A DNA stretch of 64,000 bases, taken from positions 1,946-65,945 of the forward strand of contig JANQQS010000005.1 of assembly GCA_028284955.1 (NCBI GenBank). Reading direction: 5' to 3'. A program made the translations under genes and the position numbers. This DNA comes from Myxococcota bacterium (lineage in GTDB: Bacteria > Myxococcota_A > Polyangia > Polyangiales > Houyiibacteriaceae). Under the pieces are notes generated by a model. It had not been told where the DNA came from and ran no database searches. It saw only the letters and a program-made list of their open reading frames with translations. How positions within the stretch are numbered: the stretch's first letter is position 1; each line of letters begins with the position of its first letter. Below, in pieces: positions 10,902-59,713 of this stretch.

Positions 10902-10911
10902 CTGGTTTTTT

Positions 10912-11203
10912 GAGGGGGTCTTCCGAGACCCCCTCTCGTCGGGGATACGATCCCCGCCGATTCACCCCTACCGTTTGGCTCGCGTTCGCTCGCGTTTGGT
11001 GCTGCCGCGGGCGTTGGGTGGTGGGGTGTTTGGTGGTTGGTGGCCGTCGGGGATGTGATTCCCGCCGATTCACCCTACCGTTTGGCTCGCGTTCGCTCGC
11101 GTTTGGTGCTGCCGCGGGCGTTGTGTGGTGGGGTGTTTGGTGGTTGGTAGTTGGTGGCCGTCGGGGATGTGATTCCCGCCGATTCACCCCTATCGTTTGG
11201 CTC
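10912..11203 (+). repeat. tRNA-linked repeat block: HP1 hairpin followed by ~2.4 tandem units of 108-114 bp
   Basis: HP1 GAGGGGGTCT-TCCG-AGACCCCCTC (10912-10935). Units start at 10937, 11045 and 11159. Each begins CGTCGGGGAT(ACG/GTG)AT(C/T)CCCGCCGATTCACCC(C)TA(C/T)CGTTTGGCTC and ends in a G/T-rich tract GGTGTTTGGTGGTTGGTGG. Confidence 0.9.
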
Positions 11204-12201: not shown

Positions 12202-12379
12202 CTCGTTGCGGCTACGCCCTTGACGCTTGCCGACATCGACGGCTAGGTCAAAGGTCCGCAAGAGTTCAACGAACGGAATAGGAGAGAACGCTAAGTTTGG
12301 GGCTGTGTGTCAGGTCGGTTTCGTTTGAGGCAGGCCGAGATGCATCCCATGACGTGCCGAGTTTGATTGAAAGTTAGAG

Positions 12380-12517
12380 GAGCGTCCCATAGAGCAGTGG
12401 AATTTTGGTCTGAGCGCGAGCGCCCCGGCAGCGCAGCCCGGATGACGCACGAATAGTGCTTCGTCCGGGCGAGCAGGGGAGGAAAGCCGTGGTCAGACCA
12501 AAAGGCCGCTGCTCTAG
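12380..12517 (+). ncRNA. Candidate structured RNA, copy 1 (unclassified; ends 1 nt before tRNA-Ser-GCU)
   Basis: Nested helices GAGCAGTGG/CCGCTGCTC and TTTTGGTCTGA/TCAGACCAAAA, plus an apical hairpin. The paralogue at 15994-16129 shows compensatory substitutions, and the mismatches are G.U only when read on the + strand. Conserved TTGATTG at 12363-12369. Confidence 0.5.
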
Positions 12518-12518
12518 A

Positions 12519-12609
<91 letters not shown>

Positions 12610-12617
12610 TGTTTTTT

Positions 12618-12935
12618 GAGGGGGTCTTCCGAGACCCCCTCTCGGCGGGGATACGATCCCCGCCGATTCACCCCTACCGTTTTGCTCGCGTTCGCTCGCG
12701 TTTGGTGCTGGCGCGGGCGTTGTGTGGTTTGGTGTTTGGTGTTTGGTGGCCGTCGGGGATGTGTTCCCGCCGATTCACCCCTACCGTTTTGCTCGCGTTC
12801 GCTCGCGTTTGGTGCTGCCGCGGGCGTCGTGTGGTTTGGTGTTTGGTGTTTGGTGGCCGTCGGGGATGTGTTCCCACCGATTCACCCCTACCGTTTTGCT
12901 CGCGTTCGCTCGCGTTTTGGTGCTGGCGCGGGTTT
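12618..12935 (+). repeat. tRNA-linked repeat block: HP1 hairpin followed by ~2.8 tandem units of ~108 bp
   Basis: HP1 at 12618-12641 is identical to 10912-10935. Units start at 12643, 12751 and 12858, with the same unit architecture as the block behind tRNA-Ser(UGA). Confidence 0.9.
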
Positions 12936-14899: not shown

Positions 14900-15913
14900 T
14901 CAGGAAGGCTCGAGAAGTGTCTCGATTTCCTTGGCAAAAAGCGCACGAACGGCGCCCACGAGAACATCTAGATCGAGCGACAGTCGAACTTCGATAGCGT
15001 TCGGCTTCCTATCGATAGACAACGTCTTGAGGTGTTTGTTCATTCCCAGGAACTGCCCGAGGTCGCTCGTACCGATGCTATGGGCGAGTTCTCGAAAATT
15101 TTCGGTGGCGCCTCGCGGAAACTCGCCGATGACTGTGATCTTTAGCTGTATTTCTCGGTCGTAGATGCGGGCAGACGCGATGACCGCCTTGTGGCGCGCC
15201 ATGAGCATGGACGTCTCAAAGCCGTCTGGGAACGGTATAGGGATGGGACGAAATACCCAGAGCACCGCTTCTCGATGGGCCTCGAGCCACGAGCGCGCGG
15301 CGAATGCACTCTTCGTGCTTGCTCGGAGCTTCGATGTTCCAGTACTCCGAAACAAATGGGGCTGGGCTCGTGACAAAAGACTCGAGAGCTCCGCCTCGCC
15401 TCCAAGGGCGCCGAGCGCGACGGTCACGTCGTCGAGCGCTGCCCCGTTGTAGTATTGCGTCCCCAAAAAGCCAGCGCGTCGAGCTGTCGGAGTGTCGCTG
15501 TTCTCACGAACGTGATGCATGCGATGACCCATGTCGCGAACAACCTGACGAGCATCGATATCGCCTCGCGCGATGACCAGCGGTCGGTTCGAATAGGTTG
15601 CGATGAGTAGCTCATGGATACGCTCCATCCGAATCCCAAAACGCTGCTCCAGTCGCTCCGACCACCCGTCGGCCAGAATCTCCCGACCCAATGCACGACC
15701 CCACTCGCTATGAAGAATTCGTTGTGGCGCCATCCCCACGAGCAGCTCAGCCCCTTCAGGAACGACTCGAGTCAGCGTTCCAACGCGACGAAGACGCGGA
15801 GGCTCCGGAGCGACAGCCGACGACCCACCACAGGCAGCCACCATCAACATCCCCGGCACCAACAACTCACGCACCTCGACCCCAAACCTGCTCAGTCGAA
15901 ATAGCCACTGCAT
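14900..15913 (-). CDS. Hypothetical lipoprotein
   Basis: 337-aa ORF with lipobox LMVAACGG. No recognisable domain. Confidence 0.55.
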   Translation of the reverse strand: MQWLFRLSRFGVEVRELLVPGMLMVAACGGSSAVAPEPPRLRRVGTLTRVVPEGAELLVGMAPQRILHSEWGRALGREILADGWSERLEQRFGIRMERIHELLIATYSNRPLVIARGDIDARQVVRDMGHRMHHVRENSDTPTARRAGFLGTQYYNGAALDDVTVALGALGGEAELSSLLSRAQPHLFRSTGTSKLRASTKSAFAARSWLEAHREAVLWVFRPIPIPFPDGFETSMLMARHKAVIASARIYDREIQLKITVIGEFPRGATENFRELAHSIGTSDLGQFLGMNKHLKTLSIDRKPNAIEVRLSLDLDVLVGAVRALFAKEIETLLEPS

Positions 15914-15993
15914 TCGATTACGGATTGTTAGCTGATGAAATAGCCAAGCAGCGTGTCACAAAATAGCAGAATTGCGGTTGATTGTAGGTCAAT

Positions 15994-16129
15994 GAGCGTC
16001 CCATAGAGTGGCGGATTTTTGACCGGAGCTCGAGCGCCCCGGCAGCGCAGGCCCGCCGACGTAGTCGGCTACTTCAAGGGCCGAGCAGGGGAGGAAAGCC
16101 GAGCTCCGGTCAAAAGGCCGCCGCTCTAG
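15994..16129 (+). ncRNA. Candidate structured RNA, copy 2 (convergent with recA; 3' end overlaps the recA stop codon)
   Basis: Shares the blocks GAGCGTCCCATAGAG, GAGCGCCCCGGCAGCGCAG, CGAGCAGGGGAGGAAAGCC and AAAAGGCCGC.GCTCTAG with copy 1. Helices GAGTGGCGG/CCGCCGCTC and TTTTGACCGGAGCTCG/CGAGCTCCGGTCAAAA. TTGATTG at 15978-15984. Confidence 0.45.
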
Positions 16130-17238
16130 CTTGGGCGGGGGCGGCGATCCTTACCATTCGCCTTCTTGGAAGACTCGTTTTGCCGAGTTGAGTTCGCCGT
16201 TGTTTTGGATGATGGGCCTTTCGCCTGAGATTCGGCTGGAGGTCCCGATTTTAGCCCATGGAGTTCGAGCAGGCGCTGCTCGATGTCTCGTAGCATTTCT
16301 GGATGTTCCTCGAGAAACGCCCTCGTATTGTCTCGGCCCTGTCCGAGGCGGTCGCCTTTATAGCTGTACCAGGCGCCCGACTTCTCCACGATATTGGCTT
16401 GCACTCCCAGGTCGAGCACGTCGCCGCTTCGGCTCACGCCTTTGCCGAAAAGAATGTCGAACTCGCAGTTTTGGAACGGAGGCGCTAGCTTGTTCTTGAC
16501 GACCTTGACGCGAGCGCGATTTCCGATGGCTTTGTCGCCTACTTTGATGGTGCCAATGCGCCGGATGTCGAGTCGCTGCGATGCATAGAACTTGAGCGCA
16601 TTGCCGCCCGTGGTGGTTTCTGGGCTGCCAAACATCACACCGATTTTCATGCGGATCTGGTTGATGAAGAAAAGCGTCGTGCTGCTTTTCTGCACCGTAC
16701 CCGTGAGCTTGCGCAGCGCTTGGCTCATCAGTCGAGCCTGCAATCCGACGTGCGTGTCACCCATCTCGCCTTCGATTTCTGCCTTGGGGACGAGCGCAGC
16801 CACTGAGTCGACTACGATCGCATCCACCGCTCCCGACCGCACCAGTGTGTCTGCGATTTCAAGCGCTTGCTCACCATGGTCAGGTTGGCTGACCAGGAGC
16901 TCATCGACATTGACGCCAAGTTTGCGGGCATAGGTCGGGTCAAGCGCGTGCTCCGCATCGATAAACGCGGCGACGCCGCCTTGGCGCTGACACTCGGCGA
17001 TCGCATGCAACGTGAGGGTGGTTTTGCCGCTCGATTCTGGCCCGTAGATTTCAACAATTCGGCCTCGTGGGTATCCGCCGATACCGAGTGCGAGGTCGAG
17101 GGAAATGGATCCACTCGAAATCACGGGGACTTCGATTTTTGCGTTGGCGTCCCCGAGGCGCATGATAGCGCCTTTTCCGTAAGCTTTTTCGATCGTTCCG
17201 AGCGCTAGCGACAGCGCTTTGTCGCGGTTCGAATCCAT
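16126..17238 (-). CDS. recA: Recombinase RecA (with a ~35-aa basic/Ser-rich C-terminal tail)
   Basis: [20 protein letters not shown] Walker A and [11 protein letters not shown] at 17238 is preceded by AGGAGG. The upstream in-frame start at 17286 lacks a Shine-Dalgarno sequence. Confidence 0.97.
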
Positions 17239-17247
17239 GACAGGCCT

Positions 17248-17264
17248 CCTGAACGCATGTGTAG
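17248..17264 (-). promoter_or_regulatory. LexA (SOS) box of the Myxococcus type
   Basis: The minus strand reads CTACACATGCGTTCAGG, matching every position of CTRHAMRYBYGTTCAGS (the M. xanthus LexA box as I recall it). It overlaps the recA Shine-Dalgarno sequence. Confidence 0.6.
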
Positions 17265-17304
17265 TTGATTCGTATACGGCCCGCAAGTCATTGCGCGGCC
17301 TTTA

Positions 17305-36022: not shown

Positions 36023-36068
36023 ATTTCTTTCCCCGTCCCCGATCTTTCAGTGACAACTACAGTTAGAC

Positions 36069-36396
36069 TAGGAGCAGTGCGTGCTTGCGTTGATCGAGAA
36101 TCTCGCAGAATGAAGACATCCCGCGAACTCTCCGGCAACCATGTCACGTGCCTCCTGGCAGGGGAGTTTGGGTGAATCGACGGGATCGTATCCCGGCGAG
36201 AGGGTCTGGGTGCCAGACCCTCAGGTAGACTGACCACTGCTCTAGAGCAAAGCCTGCTTGTGTTGATCGAACTCTCTCAGCAGGAAGATATTCCGCGAAC
36301 TCCCCGGCAACCAGGTTACGTGCCTCCTGGCGGGGGAGTTTGGGTGAATCGACGGGATCGTACCCCGACGAGAGGGTCTGGGTGCCAGACCCTCAG
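36069..36396 (-). repeat. Tandem direct repeat, two units of ~172-173 bp, each ending (minus orientation: beginning) with a double-hairpin + TTCACCC element
   Basis: GTTGATCGA at 36089 and 36262; CCAGACCCTCAG at 36213 and 36385. Embedded minus-strand elements: GAGGGTCTGG-loop-CCAGACCCTC, CGGGAT-ACG-ATCCCG, GATTCACCCAAAC. Confidence 0.85.
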
Positions 36397-37340
36397 ATAA
36401 AACGGCGCGGACGCCGCCGTACTCTGGCGACCACGGTGCCGAGTAGTGCGAGCCAGGCGAGTAGGGGGGCTTCGGAGCGGCGTCCCGGGGAGACGGAGCA
36501 GTCACTGCTGACGCTTCCCGAGGCCTCTGCGGAGCAGCTTCCTCCGCCACACGCGGCGCTGCTGCTGGCATCGACCTCGACGTTGAGGCGCGCGTTGAGC
36601 GCACGAATACAGTCTTCAAGATTGTTGTCGTGGTCAATGTATTGGCTGTCGCAAAACAAAGCGCCTTCCGGAGTTTGGCATTCCGCCATGCATCCGCCGA
36701 CACACTCCGCAGTGAGCCCGGCCTGGCAATCGATCTGGCAGTCGAAGTTTGCGTCGGCGCGACACCGGCCCTCCACCGTCGCTTCGCAGCGGGCTTCACA
36801 GCTCGCTTCGGGCGGTTCTACGTCGCAGCGCGCGCTGCACTCTCCCGAACACGTCGCATTGCACGATGCCTGACATTCCCCCATGCATGACGCTTGGTCA
36901 GAGTTCGCTTCGCAGCGCGCCTCGCAGCTCGCTCCGCAATCCACCTCGCAGCCCGCGGAGCAGCTCGCAGAGCAATCGAACCGTCCCGGATCGACTTCGC
37001 ATTGGGCCATGCACTCCGCCACATCAATGCGCGCCTCGCATTCTGCAGATACGCTCGCCTGACAGCCTCCCTGACAATCTGCAAAGGCCGTCACCGAGCA
37101 GTTAATCGGTGTGCACTGGGCCTCGCATCCACCTTCAACCGACACCTGGCACATGGCGCTTGCCTGAACGTTGATGTTTCCGCACGCGGCAAGCCCCGTT
37201 TCTTGCGCTGCGGCCACATCGGGCAACAAAGCCGCTCCCGTGCCCAAGACGAGCATCGAACAAACCCACGCCTTTTTGGACATCCATCGCGAAGAAAAAG
37301 CAGATTTTGAGAAGGTGGATAAAGCTCGGCTCGCTTGCAT
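36393..37340 (-). CDS. Cysteine-rich (CxxxC-periodic) secreted protein with MYXO-CTERM-like sorting tail
   Basis: About 50 Cys in runs such as CSAGCEVDCGASCEARCEANSDQASCMGECQASCNATCSGECSARC. C-terminus DCSVSPG..APLLAWLALLGTVVARVRRRPRR. ATG at 37340 has AGGAG 6 nt upstream; an internal ATG at 37283 is possible. Confidence 0.7.
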   Translation of the reverse strand: MQASRALSTFSKSAFSSRWMSKKAWVCSMLVLGTGAALLPDVAAAQETGLAACGNINVQASAMCQVSVEGGCEAQCTPINCSVTAFADCQGGCQASVSAECEARIDVAECMAQCEVDPGRFDCSASCSAGCEVDCGASCEARCEANSDQASCMGECQASCNATCSGECSARCDVEPPEASCEARCEATVEGRCRADANFDCQIDCQAGLTAECVGGCMAECQTPEGALFCDSQYIDHDNNLEDCIRALNARLNVEVDASSSAACGGGSCSAEASGSVSSDCSVSPGRRSEAPLLAWLALLGTVVARVRRRPRRFI

Positions 37341-44755: not shown

Positions 44756-47201
<2,446 letters not shown>

Positions 47202-55176: not shown

Positions 55177-56709
55177 CTACTCAGGCAGTCGCGTTCGTAA
55201 CGCAGAGAGGGTTTCCACCTGGTTCACCTCGATGTCTTCTCGATAGCCTCGAACGCGCGCAAAACGGAGCGCAACGCCACCGGGATAGCGCGGGCTTTTT
55301 TGCACGCCATCAAATGCTATCTCTACCACCAGTTCCGGACGAACATGAACCACGTGCCCTTCGGTATGCACGCTTCGTTTGAGCAGCTGATCCGTCTGCC
55401 ATTGCAGGAGTTCATCGGACAAGCCTTTGAACGTCTTGCCCACGATCGCGAAACGATCTCCGTCTCGCGCGCCTAAATGCAAATTGCTGAGGCGTCCTTT
55501 GCGTCGACCGCTGCCCCATTCCGCGGCGAGCACCACCAGCTCAATGGTATGCACTGGCTTCCATTTCCGCCATGCGCCGCCGCGATTCCCGAGCTCATAG
55601 CTCGAAGAAAGGCTCTTCAGCATCACCCCTTCATGGCCGCGCGCGGTGACTTCATCGAAAAATGCCTGCGCTTCTTCCACACTGCGCACCACCGTGCTCT
55701 CCACCATGAGCTCCTCGGGTACAACCCGGGTGAGCAAATCGATTCGGTGCTCCAAAGGCAAGTCAATCGCATCCACCACCTCATCGGCACCCGCCTGCAG
55801 CACGTCAAAAAACCGAATGGTGGTGGGCTGCTCGTTGGCCGCCTGTACCACCTGTTGTCGCCGTCCGACGCGACGCATCGTGGTTTGAAAAGGAAGCGGG
55901 CGACCGCGATCGTCGAGCGACAGCGCTTCGCCATCGAGAACCGCCGACGACACTTCGAGGCGAGCGATGGCGTCGACTACGTCGGGCAAAGACGCCGTCA
56001 TGTCGCGTCCAGAACGACTAAAGAGCCACACTCGCCCCTTCTCTTTGTGTGCTTGAATACGCACACCATCGAGTTTCGCTTCAGCCCGCCACGCGCTTTC
56101 TTCCTCGAATAGGGCACGAAGTTCAGAAGCTGGCTGCGCCAACATGGGTCGGAGCGCACGTCCCACGCGAATCGTAAACGCTTCCAAGGCACTTGCCCCT
56201 TCCCTAAAGGCAGCGTCGGCAACCGCCGAGAGATCGCCACTAAGCATCCATGCGCGCCGCACCTTCTGAATCGAGACACCGGTCGCGTGCGCGACCGCGT
56301 CGACCATGATTCCGTCCAGCGCTCCCTGGCGAAGTTCTCCCACCAAAAGACGAGATAAAAAAAATTGCTCGCGTTTCGTGGCTCGACCGAAGAGCTCTTC
56401 GAGGCGTCGCCGTCGCTGAGCCGCCGACCCCTTCCCGGTTATCGCGGTCAGCCGCTGAAGAGTACTATCAACATCCGAAAGCGTCAGCGTGGCTTCCTCT
56501 GCCGCAGCAATATCCATCTCCTGCAAGAGTCTGAAGCCAATGCCAACCTTACCCTGCGGAAGTGTTCCCGTGAGATAGTGAAGGATTAGAGGTCGCTCAT
56601 CTCGTGAACACGTGTCGAGCAACTCCGCGAGCGCGCCTACTTTCTTCTTCTTGGAACGTGTGCGCGCCAGATCTTCAGAGCACACGGCCAAAGCTTCAAA
56701 CGTAATCAC
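55177..56709 (-). CDS. ATP-dependent DNA ligase (three-domain LigB/Lig1-like)
   Basis: Adenylation motif I AEAKLDGVRIQAH, and EGVMLK (motif IV/V region). The 510-aa length is consistent with DBD + AdD + OB. Confidence 0.9.
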   Translation of the reverse strand: MITFEALAVCSEDLARTRSKKKKVGALAELLDTCSRDERPLILHYLTGTLPQGKVGIGFRLLQEMDIAAAEEATLTLSDVDSTLQRLTAITGKGSAAQRRRRLEELFGRATKREQFFLSRLLVGELRQGALDGIMVDAVAHATGVSIQKVRRAWMLSGDLSAVADAAFREGASALEAFTIRVGRALRPMLAQPASELRALFEEESAWRAEAKLDGVRIQAHKEKGRVWLFSRSGRDMTASLPDVVDAIARLEVSSAVLDGEALSLDDRGRPLPFQTTMRRVGRRQQVVQAANEQPTTIRFFDVLQAGADEVVDAIDLPLEHRIDLLTRVVPEELMVESTVVRSVEEAQAFFDEVTARGHEGVMLKSLSSSYELGNRGGAWRKWKPVHTIELVVLAAEWGSGRRKGRLSNLHLGARDGDRFAIVGKTFKGLSDELLQWQTDQLLKRSVHTEGHVVHVRPELVVEIAFDGVQKSPRYPGGVALRFARVRGYREDIEVNQVETLSALRTRLPE

Positions 56710-59571: not shown

Positions 59572-59713
59572 TCATCTACTATAGTCGATCACTGGTTGTA
59601 GCACGCAGACCAAAACTCCACTGCTCTATGAGACGCGACTTGCGCGGCAATCACCCCTTTGATCTCTGCGATAGAACGACAGTGAGTATGGTCGATCGAA
59701 ATCTCGCAGCTGT

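Follow-up and report, generated by a model that had tools for sequence, protein, structure and literature searches.

A TA-flanked hairpin repeat with an invariant core and co-varying arms in Myxococcota, a candidate ERIC- or Correia-like mobile element

We analyzed a stretch of 64,000 nt of the Myxococcota bacterium assembly GCA_028284955.1 (contig JANQQS010000005.1), hereafter called the window, whose positions are the coordinates used below, and we describe a structured intergenic element of about 127 bp that occurs in it, one copy of which (copy 1) lies immediately upstream of a tRNA-Ser(GCU) gene. We tentatively propose, with a probability of roughly 0.45, that copy 1 is a member of a lineage-restricted and undescribed family of mobile palindromic intergenic repeats of the ERIC/Correia kind, which would be co-transcribed with its neighbours and under structural selection on the single strand. 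We favour this reading because of the size of the element, the TA-flanked inverted repeats of its window-type copies, its sites at gene ends, the truncated, remnant, and tandem forms in which it occurs, the empty sites in relatives, and the contig breaks found at it. Two further loci carry the element, one in a Polyangia metagenome-assembled genome (MAG; JAUICN010000005, locus L011, of which L087 is a longer stretch of 20 kb) and one in a MAG contig of 1,011 bp (locus L015). The copies in the window are listed here with fold z-scores from 200 shuffles per copy and bit scores from a covariance model (R1) built from five copies of the window, L011, and L015 types.

12390-12516, + strand: copy 1, a hairpin of 127 nt from TA to TA (fold -84.9 kcal/mol, z-score -9.8; 105.6 bits), made up of the 5′ arm (12390-12417), core strand B (12418-12436), the apical hairpin (12437-12469), core strand C (12470-12488), and the 3′ arm (12489-12516)
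16004-16128, + strand: copy 2, a hairpin of 125 nt from TA to TA (fold -82.0 kcal/mol, z-score -7.1; 86.8 bits), with core strand B at 16032-16050 and core strand C at 16082-16100
12363-12389, + strand: 5′ accessory module of copy 1, consisting of TTGATTG, a variable spacer of 10 nt, and GAGCGTCCCA
15978-16003, + strand: 5′ accessory module of copy 2, consisting of TTGATTG, a spacer of 9 nt, and GAGCGTCCCA
59606-59653, - strand: truncated copy c3, found by blastn and motif search, with the module in the form TGATTG-N17-CATAGAG and the first 23 nt of the 5′ arm (TAGAGCAGTGGAGTTTTGGTCTG), followed by unrelated sequence
36230-36244, - strand: remnant c4, 15 nt (TAGAGCAGTGGTCAG), joining the first 11 nt of the element to GTGGTCAG, which is the start of the 3′ arm of copy 1

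An earlier reading of the window made from its letters alone (the sequence-only reading) had placed two copies at 12380-12517 and 15994-16129, and we found both there, with the shared blocks exact and an alignment of 78% identity over ~155 nt. Full copies are units of 125-128 bp that consist of two 28-nt arms, a core of 19 + 19 nt (strand B, GAGCGCCCCGGCAGCGCAG, and strand C, CGAGCAGGGGAGGAAAGCC), and a variable tip, with no conserved open reading frame (ORF), i.e., they have the size, the inverted arms, and the non-coding character of a MITE (a miniature transposable element with inverted repeats). The + strand of the family is predicted to fold into an unbranched hairpin, or rod, of -82 to -92 kcal/mol, and none of the 200 shuffles was as stable as copy 1 or copy 2. 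The - strand of these two copies folds more weakly (-68 and -77 kcal/mol, respectively), and in the three copies of the window type the + strand is the more stable by 5-17 kcal/mol. Arms of the window type have 11 bp, a 2x2 A/G loop, and then 15 bp, with an additional G.G mismatch in copy 1. Pairing within the core is partial and asymmetric, the predicted layout being three short G-C helices with a bulged A, a 1x3 loop, a second bulged A, a 4x3 loop, and a 3x2 loop between them. The tip, of 31-34 nt, varies in length by 1-3 nt among copies and carries a conserved C.U mismatch. The apical hairpins had been considered unrelated in sequence, but all copies follow a common plan, GAC-(4-bp stem)-loop-(4-bp stem)-UUC, in which the stem co-varies (GCAC/GUGC, GUAG/CUAC, and GUAC/GUAC). 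Within the window, the 18- and 19-nt core strands occur at copies 1 and 2 only, compared with 0.05 and 0.09 occurrences expected.

The distribution of changes between the copies is uneven. Copies 1 and 2 differ at 14 of 56 arm bases and at none of 38 core bases (P ~2e-5 under a uniform rate), and five of their arm pairs are altered on both sides, confirming the compensatory helix changes that had been proposed. The arms of the window type have no sequence in common with those of the L011 type, 19-21 of the 28 pairs being altered on both sides, and still the core is identical and the arm length constant at 28 nt; the arms of one L011 copy, L011b, form 28 perfect pairs. In an alignment of 92 columns with 33 consensus pairs, representing only 4-5 semi-independent copies and thus weak by R-scape standards, double changes are seen in 13 of the 33 pairs and 91% of the cells are paired, a level of covariation reached by none of 500 shuffles used as a control, and a register shift of 1-3 columns lowers pairing from 91% to 34-43%. 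Since the core is fixed while the arms change by compensatory or G.U steps, sequence-specific recognition of the core by a protein is implied, and the invariant, asymmetric core is most simply seen as a putative protein-recognition site.

The mismatches in the arms also bear on which form of the element is selected. Among transition-type mismatches, all 6 are G.T on the + strand and none is A.C, so that the proposal that T opposite G is the sole helix mismatch holds for this class, but not in general, given the 2x2 A/G loop and the G.G and C.U mismatches described above. This bias points to selection on the folded + strand, as either RNA or single-stranded DNA (ssDNA). The sequence-only reading had argued from it for an RNA and not a DNA cruciform; the strand preference is borne out by both the folds and the G.T pairs, but ssDNA fits them as well as RNA does. 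Against a selective origin of the bias, copy 1 shares its strand with copy 2, 3.6 kb away, and the GC skew of this region is positive, so that with n = 6 biased mutation may have produced it.

Comparison of the loci defines the ends of the element. Homology between the L015 copy and copy 1 (92% identity) begins and stops exactly at the TA..TA ends of the hairpin. The ends read TA-GAG...CTC-TA in copy 1, copy 2, and L015, and AA-GCG...CGC-TA in L011, and the terminal arm sequences are TAGAGCRGYGG... and AGCGTTCGG..., respectively. At three loci the 3′ end is flush with a neighbouring gene: it is 2 nt from the 5′ end of tRNA-Ser, overlaps the recA stop codon by 3 nt, and overlaps the lepA stop codon by 2 nt. 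Read on the other strand, the last 3 nt of copy 2 (CTA) form TAG, the stop codon of recA. Both proteins have natural C-termini (RecA, ...RRPRPS* compared with ...RPRPN* in relatives; LepA, ...ILKID* compared with ...ILKVD* in a relative). Both stop codons are TAG, composed of the flanking TA and the first G of the inverted repeat, and the relatives use TGA. The economical inference is that an element that targets TA and starts with G would recreate a stop codon when landing in TAA or TAG, which would explain how it can lie flush on the recA and lepA stop codons without damage.

The immediate neighbourhoods of the copies, in gene order, and the neighbouring genes discussed below are as follows.

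Copy 1: DeoC-family aldolase, copy 1, tRNA-Ser, tRNA-Arg, tadA
Copy 2: carD/cdnL, 337-aa orphan lipoprotein gene, copy 2, recA, cinA
c3: FG-GAP gene, c3, CAAX-protease-like gene; c3 is upstream of the latter and co-directional with both
L011: MiaB-like protein, hexapeptide transferase, two copies, convergent lepA
L015: frameshifted 23S_rRNA_IVP four-helix-bundle gene, then the copy
12519-12609, + strand: tRNA-Ser(GCU), identified by ARAGORN and by Rfam (tRNA, 61.1 bits), a neighbour and not part of the repeat family
16126-17286, - strand: recA ORF, in which the first possible start, a TTG, lies 16 codons upstream of the conserved one (the identical database protein begins MDSNRDKAL and has 370 aa)
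14900-15913, - strand: the 337-aa ORF, with a lipoprotein-type signal (..MLMVAACGG..)
L015 347-937, - strand: the 23S_rRNA_IVP (four-helix-bundle, Avd-like) gene, which appears frameshifted at a (GAAGT)4 microsatellite

All neighbours of the copies are ordinary chromosomal genes, those in the window being housekeeping genes, and no transposase, integrase, or reverse transcriptase was identified among the ~45 window ORFs scanned. The 337-aa ORF contains no Pfam domain, and its only match among 5.8 billion proteins is itself. At four of five loci the element is co-directional with the upstream gene, an orientation from which we infer that it is co-transcribed with its neighbours. The position of copy 1 next to tRNA-Ser(GCU) agrees with what had been reported, in that the tRNA starts at 12519, 2 nt past the last paired base of the hairpin (12516); in the centroid fold of a 250-nt precursor the hairpin and the cloverleaf form independently. 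The further idea that the element is fused to the tRNA, as a dedicated leader or a tRNA-linked small RNA (sRNA), found no support, as other copies are found at recA, at the CAAX-protease-like gene, at lepA, and at the gene for a 23S intervening-sequence protein. Given such unrelated contexts, adjacency to the tRNA represents one insertion site among several.

Corresponding sites without the element are present in relatives and within the window itself, although the relatives are distant. Three relatives compared at recA (L084, L085, and L086) have the arrangement cinA-recA-239 nt-carD with no element, and between recA and carD the window has the element and the 337-aa orphan lipoprotein gene instead; RecA of these relatives is 83-85% identical overall and 89% over the aligned part. 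In a relative compared at lepA (L089, LepA 80% identical) there is no element after lepA. By the similarity of its RecA the window organism belongs to Myxococcota; the nearest named matches are Polyangiales and Myxococcales MAGs, and there is no close sequenced relative. Remnant c4 is a 12-nt indel at TA in one unit (A) of a tandem repeat of ~177 nt, and the sister unit (B), which is 90% identical to unit A, has the empty site CTCC-TA-GTCTAAC, i.e., CC-TA-GT around the target. Truncated copy c3 matches by blastn over a stretch of 31/31 nt at 93.5%, contains neither the core nor the 3′ arm, and has no stable fold (z-score +0.9). In L011 the two copies are in tandem at 2571-2853 on the - strand (L087 10571-10853), and this duplication is explained by a direct repeat of 9-10 nt (CCCCTAAAC), which occurs once at or over the stop codon of the hexapeptide transferase and once within the 3′ arm; because the duplication took place between these repeats, the 3′ arm of the first L011 copy is truncated. 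An independent Logan assembly of the L011 organism (ERR3428547, L088 10500-10529) ends 46 nt past lepA, inside the element, consistent with a repeat that breaks assemblies. The contig containing L015 is binned to a “Zixibacteriota” MAG, but probably wrongly, since its element is 92% identical to that of the window.

Our database searches place the element outside known families. On the window, only three tRNAs pass the gathering thresholds of Rfam 15, confirming that the element is unclassified, and none of the RNase P, signal recognition particle (SRP), 6S, Y RNA, transfer-messenger RNA, riboswitch, ribozyme, or known sRNA models matches it. At E<=10, with 4 kb, a 159-nt query, and the L011 copies searched, Rfam returned only generic hairpin, microRNA-precursor, and small nucleolar RNA matches of 10-29 bits, compared with thresholds of 37-137 bits. 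A resemblance to the P4 strand of RNase P had been pointed out, but this amounts to ~11 shared nt with no covariance-model support; one chance match from our metagenome scan (L080 661-730, - strand) is a genuine bacterial RNase P RNA (GGGGAGGAAAGTCCGGGCT), showing that the resemblance consists of only ~11 common bases. The genome and metagenome scans used exact core words, which variants with even one core substitution would escape. With this scope, the exact 18-mer of strand C occurs at 26 loci in 185,579 species genomes, about the number expected by chance, of which only L011 and L015 are genuine. The two-block core pattern gave 56 matches in 241 million metagenome records, all by chance and none with the full core (one, L083, falls in a coding sequence), and 0 matches in IMG/VR. 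The element has no blastn match in collections of 72,556 plasmids and 50,697 phages, model R1 located no further diverged copy in the window, where it was run with filters off, or in 24 loci, and a literature search on the core sequence strings and on structured repeats of Myxococcota gave nothing relevant. The copies amount to two full, one truncated, and one remnant in the 64 kb of the window, and two in tandem in 20 kb of L011/L087. On this evidence the family, although genuine, has a very narrow distribution, at least for the exact core.

Some copies are preceded by an accessory module outside the hairpin. The pattern TGATTG-N17/18-YCATAG occurs three times in the window compared with 0.04 expected, the third being at c3, and copies 1, 2, and c3 share TGATTG, a variable spacer of 9-11 nt, and G(A/T)(G/C)CGTC(C/T)CA. 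The module is not found upstream of the L015 and L011 copies or at remnant c4. With two conserved blocks and a variable spacer, it looks like a promoter or an operator. The TTGATTG that had been suggested as a weak -35 element is indeed present at both full copies, and at c3, but it has no sigma-70 -10 partner and is missing from the copies in other genomes. A promoter scan identified no sigma-70-like promoter at either full copy, there being no -10 at the correct spacing, and neither has an intrinsic terminator, the hairpin lacking a trailing U-tract. The promoters of carD and tRNA-Arg in the window are canonical (TTGACx-N17-TAxxxT). The CGTC of the module is reminiscent of the -10 boxes of extracytoplasmic function (ECF) sigma factors, but its spacing to TGATTG is only 12-13 nt.

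Taken together, we envisage a mobile repeat that works as follows. The unit would be copied or moved as DNA into TA sites by a factor acting in trans, none being found in the window, and as both ends read TA-G, insertion into a TAA or TAG stop codon would recreate TAG. Judging from their orientation, the majority of copies are situated within transcription units or at their ends and would be transcribed with their neighbours, and the + strand is computed to form a very stable rod. Selection would then act on this single-stranded form, with the core read by either the mobilising enzyme or a host factor that binds or processes RNA. In the case of copy 1, the element would have landed 2 nt upstream of tRNA-Ser(GCU) and become part of the pre-tRNA leader, and RNase P would release a stable hairpin, which we see as a by-product of its position and not as its purpose.

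Several observations weigh against a mobile repeat of this kind. Neither the ~45 window ORFs nor the plasmid and phage blastn searches yielded an autonomous parent element or a transposase with matching ends. MITEs conserve their terminal inverted repeats and transposases read them, yet here the termini vary, the arms differing wholly between subtypes, around an invariant centre, as in a functional RNA. The TA..TA ends belong to the palindrome, so that a target-site duplication is indistinguishable from terminal pairs, and the 5′ end of L011 is AA. Copies 1, 2, and c3 share ~27 nt of 5′ flank that a unit running from TA to TA leaves unexplained. The relatives with empty sites are distant (80-89% protein identity) and their stop codons are TGA, which contains no TA. 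The copy number is that of the stretches surveyed, and the covariation is that of few semi-independent sequences.

A more doubtful proposal is that the 19 + 19-nt core closed by a 28-bp helix represents a new class of structured RNA or ssDNA ligand for a protein, with the MITE-like traits being secondary; a related idea is that the termini are built to recreate TAG, and hence to allow insertion exactly at the ends of essential genes. Under the proposal of a ligand, the element might be a selfish one at the RNA level that spreads through recognition of its core, or it might be an amplified host rod RNA comparable to SRP, Y, or 6S RNA. A stand-alone family of sRNA genes, which we regard as unlikely, would start from the same observations: an invariant core with fully co-varying stems is a classic signature of functional RNA, G.U pairs occur on the + strand only, and the 28-nt arm length is kept in both subtypes. 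Here every copy would carry a promoter of its own (TTGATTG ... CGTCCCATAGAG, perhaps one for an alternative sigma factor) and give a rod RNA of ~127 nt starting near the first base of the hairpin, the core of which would bind a cellular protein as a sponge or scaffold, much as 6S, Y, and SRP RNA do; the transcript of copy 1 would include tRNA-Ser as well as the sRNA, and RNase P would cut the two apart. The upstream module with its variable spacer, present at three loci in the window including copy 2, which has no co-directional upstream gene, and the resemblance of its CGTC to an ECF-type -10 speak for such a promoter. The absence of the module from L015, L011, and c4, and the lack of a sigma-70-like promoter or intrinsic terminator at either copy in a window where the carD and tRNA-Arg promoters are canonical, speak against it, and CATAGA, if taken as the -10, would place the start inside the 5′ arm. 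In addition, one would expect truncated, remnant, and tandem copies, and ends that abut stop codons, of a selfish repeat rather than of an sRNA gene, and the spread is extremely narrow (2 of 185,579 species genomes and 0 of 241 million metagenome records for the exact core).

Strand-specific G.T pairs and conserved asymmetric bulges would equally suit an ssDNA hairpin site, in which the + strand folds during replication or transfer and an HUH/RAYT transposase, or a tyrosine recombinase acting as on integron attC or CTX attP, reads the bulges of the core. One REP super-family has as its tag the GTAG...CTAC that encloses the L015 hairpin, dimers of REPs within longer palindromes are known (PMC3733652), and L015, L011, and the orphan gene beside copy 2 have the look of an ORF followed by a folded site. 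We nevertheless judge this improbable: the arms are not small palindromes, as would be needed for a REP doublet; the copies in the window carry ATAG/CTAG and those in L011 AGCG instead of GTAG; the base of the hairpin has no attC R″/R′ boxes (RYYYAAC / GTTRRRY); and attC and REPIN conserve the base and vary the centre, the opposite of what we observe. Moreover, no RAYT, IntI, or Xer-like gene is nearby, and copy 2 lies on the 5′ side of the orphan ORF, not on the 3′ side as in an integron cassette. Least probable of all, and in our view highly unlikely, is a cis-acting RNA device for the adjacent gene, i.e., a leader or processing signal of tRNA-Ser, a riboswitch or attenuator, an RNase P-like or self-cleaving ribozyme, or a dedicated bidirectional terminator. 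Copy 1 does abut the 5′ end of the tRNA, and two copies are between convergent genes, where bidirectional terminators are common. However, the downstream contexts are unrelated (a tRNA, antisense recA, antisense lepA, and a lipoprotein-like gene), which makes a ligand- or gene-specific regulator unlikely, and there is no U-tract behind the hairpin. Short segments of bacterial RNase P RNA (E. coli M1) are similar to GGGGAGGAAAG and CCCAUAGAGCAG, but no ribozyme, riboswitch, or RNase P model matches the 159-nt query at E<=10 and the fold is an unbranched rod. An alternative pairing is conceivable, as block A (GAGCGUCCC) resembles core strand B (GAGCGCCCC), but block A is not found outside the window genome.

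We also examined and rejected a number of more specific candidates. A coding peptide was rejected because tip indels break the frame, a double-stranded DNA operator because the core strands are poor inverted repeats, a K-turn because the required G.A/A.G positions are not occupied accordingly, and a Shine-Dalgarno sequence with a start codon because GUG is present in copy 1 only. Arms derived from the target were rejected as arms of the window type travel with the element to unrelated loci. For an integron attC, the foot of the hairpin is TAGAGC...GCTCTA or AGCGTT...AACGCT and lacks AAC/GTT boxes, and the conserved part is central; for REP/REPIN, the arms have no internal palindrome, the centre is invariant, and GTAG/CTAC occurs in L015 only. 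A retron msr-msd was rejected since the closing duplex is present but encloses 69-72 nt, where at least 130 are expected, and no reverse transcriptase domain is encoded in neighbouring ORFs at any locus.

A mobile intergenic repeat finds its closest counterparts in ERIC, of ~127 bp, and Correia elements, of 104-157 bp (PMC3184786). ERIC-type repeats of Photorhabdus and Xenorhabdus have terminal inverted repeats and a TA motif at both termini, and long RNA stem-loops are the general fold of bacterial MITEs, which can include promoters and are often located at gene 3′ ends and co-transcribed, with some regulating mRNA stability (PMC3184786). Like ERIC (also termed IRU), our element is an imperfect palindrome of ~127 bp that is strictly intergenic, lies in or next to transcription units, and would form a long RNA stem-loop. 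Unlike ERIC, with which it shares no sequence similarity, it resides in the phylum Myxococcota, its arms are wholly replaced between subtypes around a 38-nt asymmetric core that is 100% identical, its copy number appears low, its spread is extremely narrow, and some copies have a 5′ accessory module. As in our element, the centre of ERIC is reportedly more conserved than the periphery, and its sequence is said to be conserved across species at differing locations. The length range of 104-157 bp is likewise that of the Correia elements of Neisseria (NEMIS, CREE), which are classed as MITEs, can carry functional promoters, and are in many cases on the 5′ side of genes (PMC3184786). Correia elements differ from ours in conserving terminal repeats of 26 bp and having a centre with an IHF site, in contrast to variable ends and a fixed centre. 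They are reportedly bounded by TA-flanked inverted repeats and co-transcribed, with the RNA hairpin said to be a substrate of RNase III, and truncated and internally deleted variants exist.

Likenesses to other structured sequences are more partial. As in REP/REPIN sequences mobilised by RAYTs, we observe intergenic hairpin repeats with compensatory stem changes and strand-specific mismatches, and the L015 copy has a GTAG-type tag at the foot of its hairpin. REPs occur as dimers and clusters, some of them inside longer palindromes (PMC3733652). REPs are, however, palindromes of 20-40 nt, and a REPIN is two of these with a variable spacer; in our element the arms are not palindromes and the centre is invariant, the window copies have no GTAG, and no RAYT was seen near the copies. 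The element resembles 4.5S/SRP RNA, 6S RNA, and Y RNA (~100-180 nt) in being an unbranched rod with co-varying helices, and the conserved internal loops of those RNAs bind protein. Those RNAs differ in being single-copy, with fixed synteny, promoters and terminators, and a broad spread, and the element, which none of their covariance models matches, is multi-copy, has truncated and tandem forms, and is flush on its neighbours.

If the element is a mobile repeat, it would extend the ERIC/Correia kind to deep-branching Myxococcota and provide an unusually clean case of selection on a folded single strand, with a fixed centre and co-varying ends, the reverse of what recognition of terminal repeats by a transposase predicts. 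Its placement at recA and lepA points to a simple rule by which a repeat could insert into a GC-rich genome without harm, a TA target and an end starting with G together recreating TAG. If instead the core is a protein-binding RNA module, it would represent a new class of non-coding RNA. In practical terms, the element may explain contig breaks in MAGs of these lineages, and it should not be annotated as part of the tRNA-Ser gene.

The window also contains a second, unrelated repeat family, in which a pair of neighbouring hairpins (GAGGG(G)TCT..AGACCC(C)TC and CGGGGATACGATCCCCG) precedes GATTCACCC, and tandem arrays that start inside this family.

10910-10960 and 12617-12668, + strand, and 36397-36340 and 36224-36170, - strand: second repeat family
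10937-11203 and 12659-12932, + strand, and 36050-36397, - strand: tandem arrays starting inside the second repeat family

This second family is located directly 3′ of both tRNA-Ser genes, and at 36397 it is flush on the TGA stop codon of a gene for a Cys-rich secreted protein. The arrays after the two tRNA-Ser genes have units of 107 bp (x2.4 and x2.6, with 91-97% matches), and that at 36 kb has units of ~177 bp (x1.9, 90% identical). Because they have these arrays in common, the 3′ flanks of the two tRNA-Ser genes are paralogous modules. Finally, the window encodes both an NAD-dependent LigA (44756-46915, - strand) and an ATP-dependent DNA ligase with DNA_ligase_A_N/M/C domains (55177-56709, - strand), located less than 10 kb apart.

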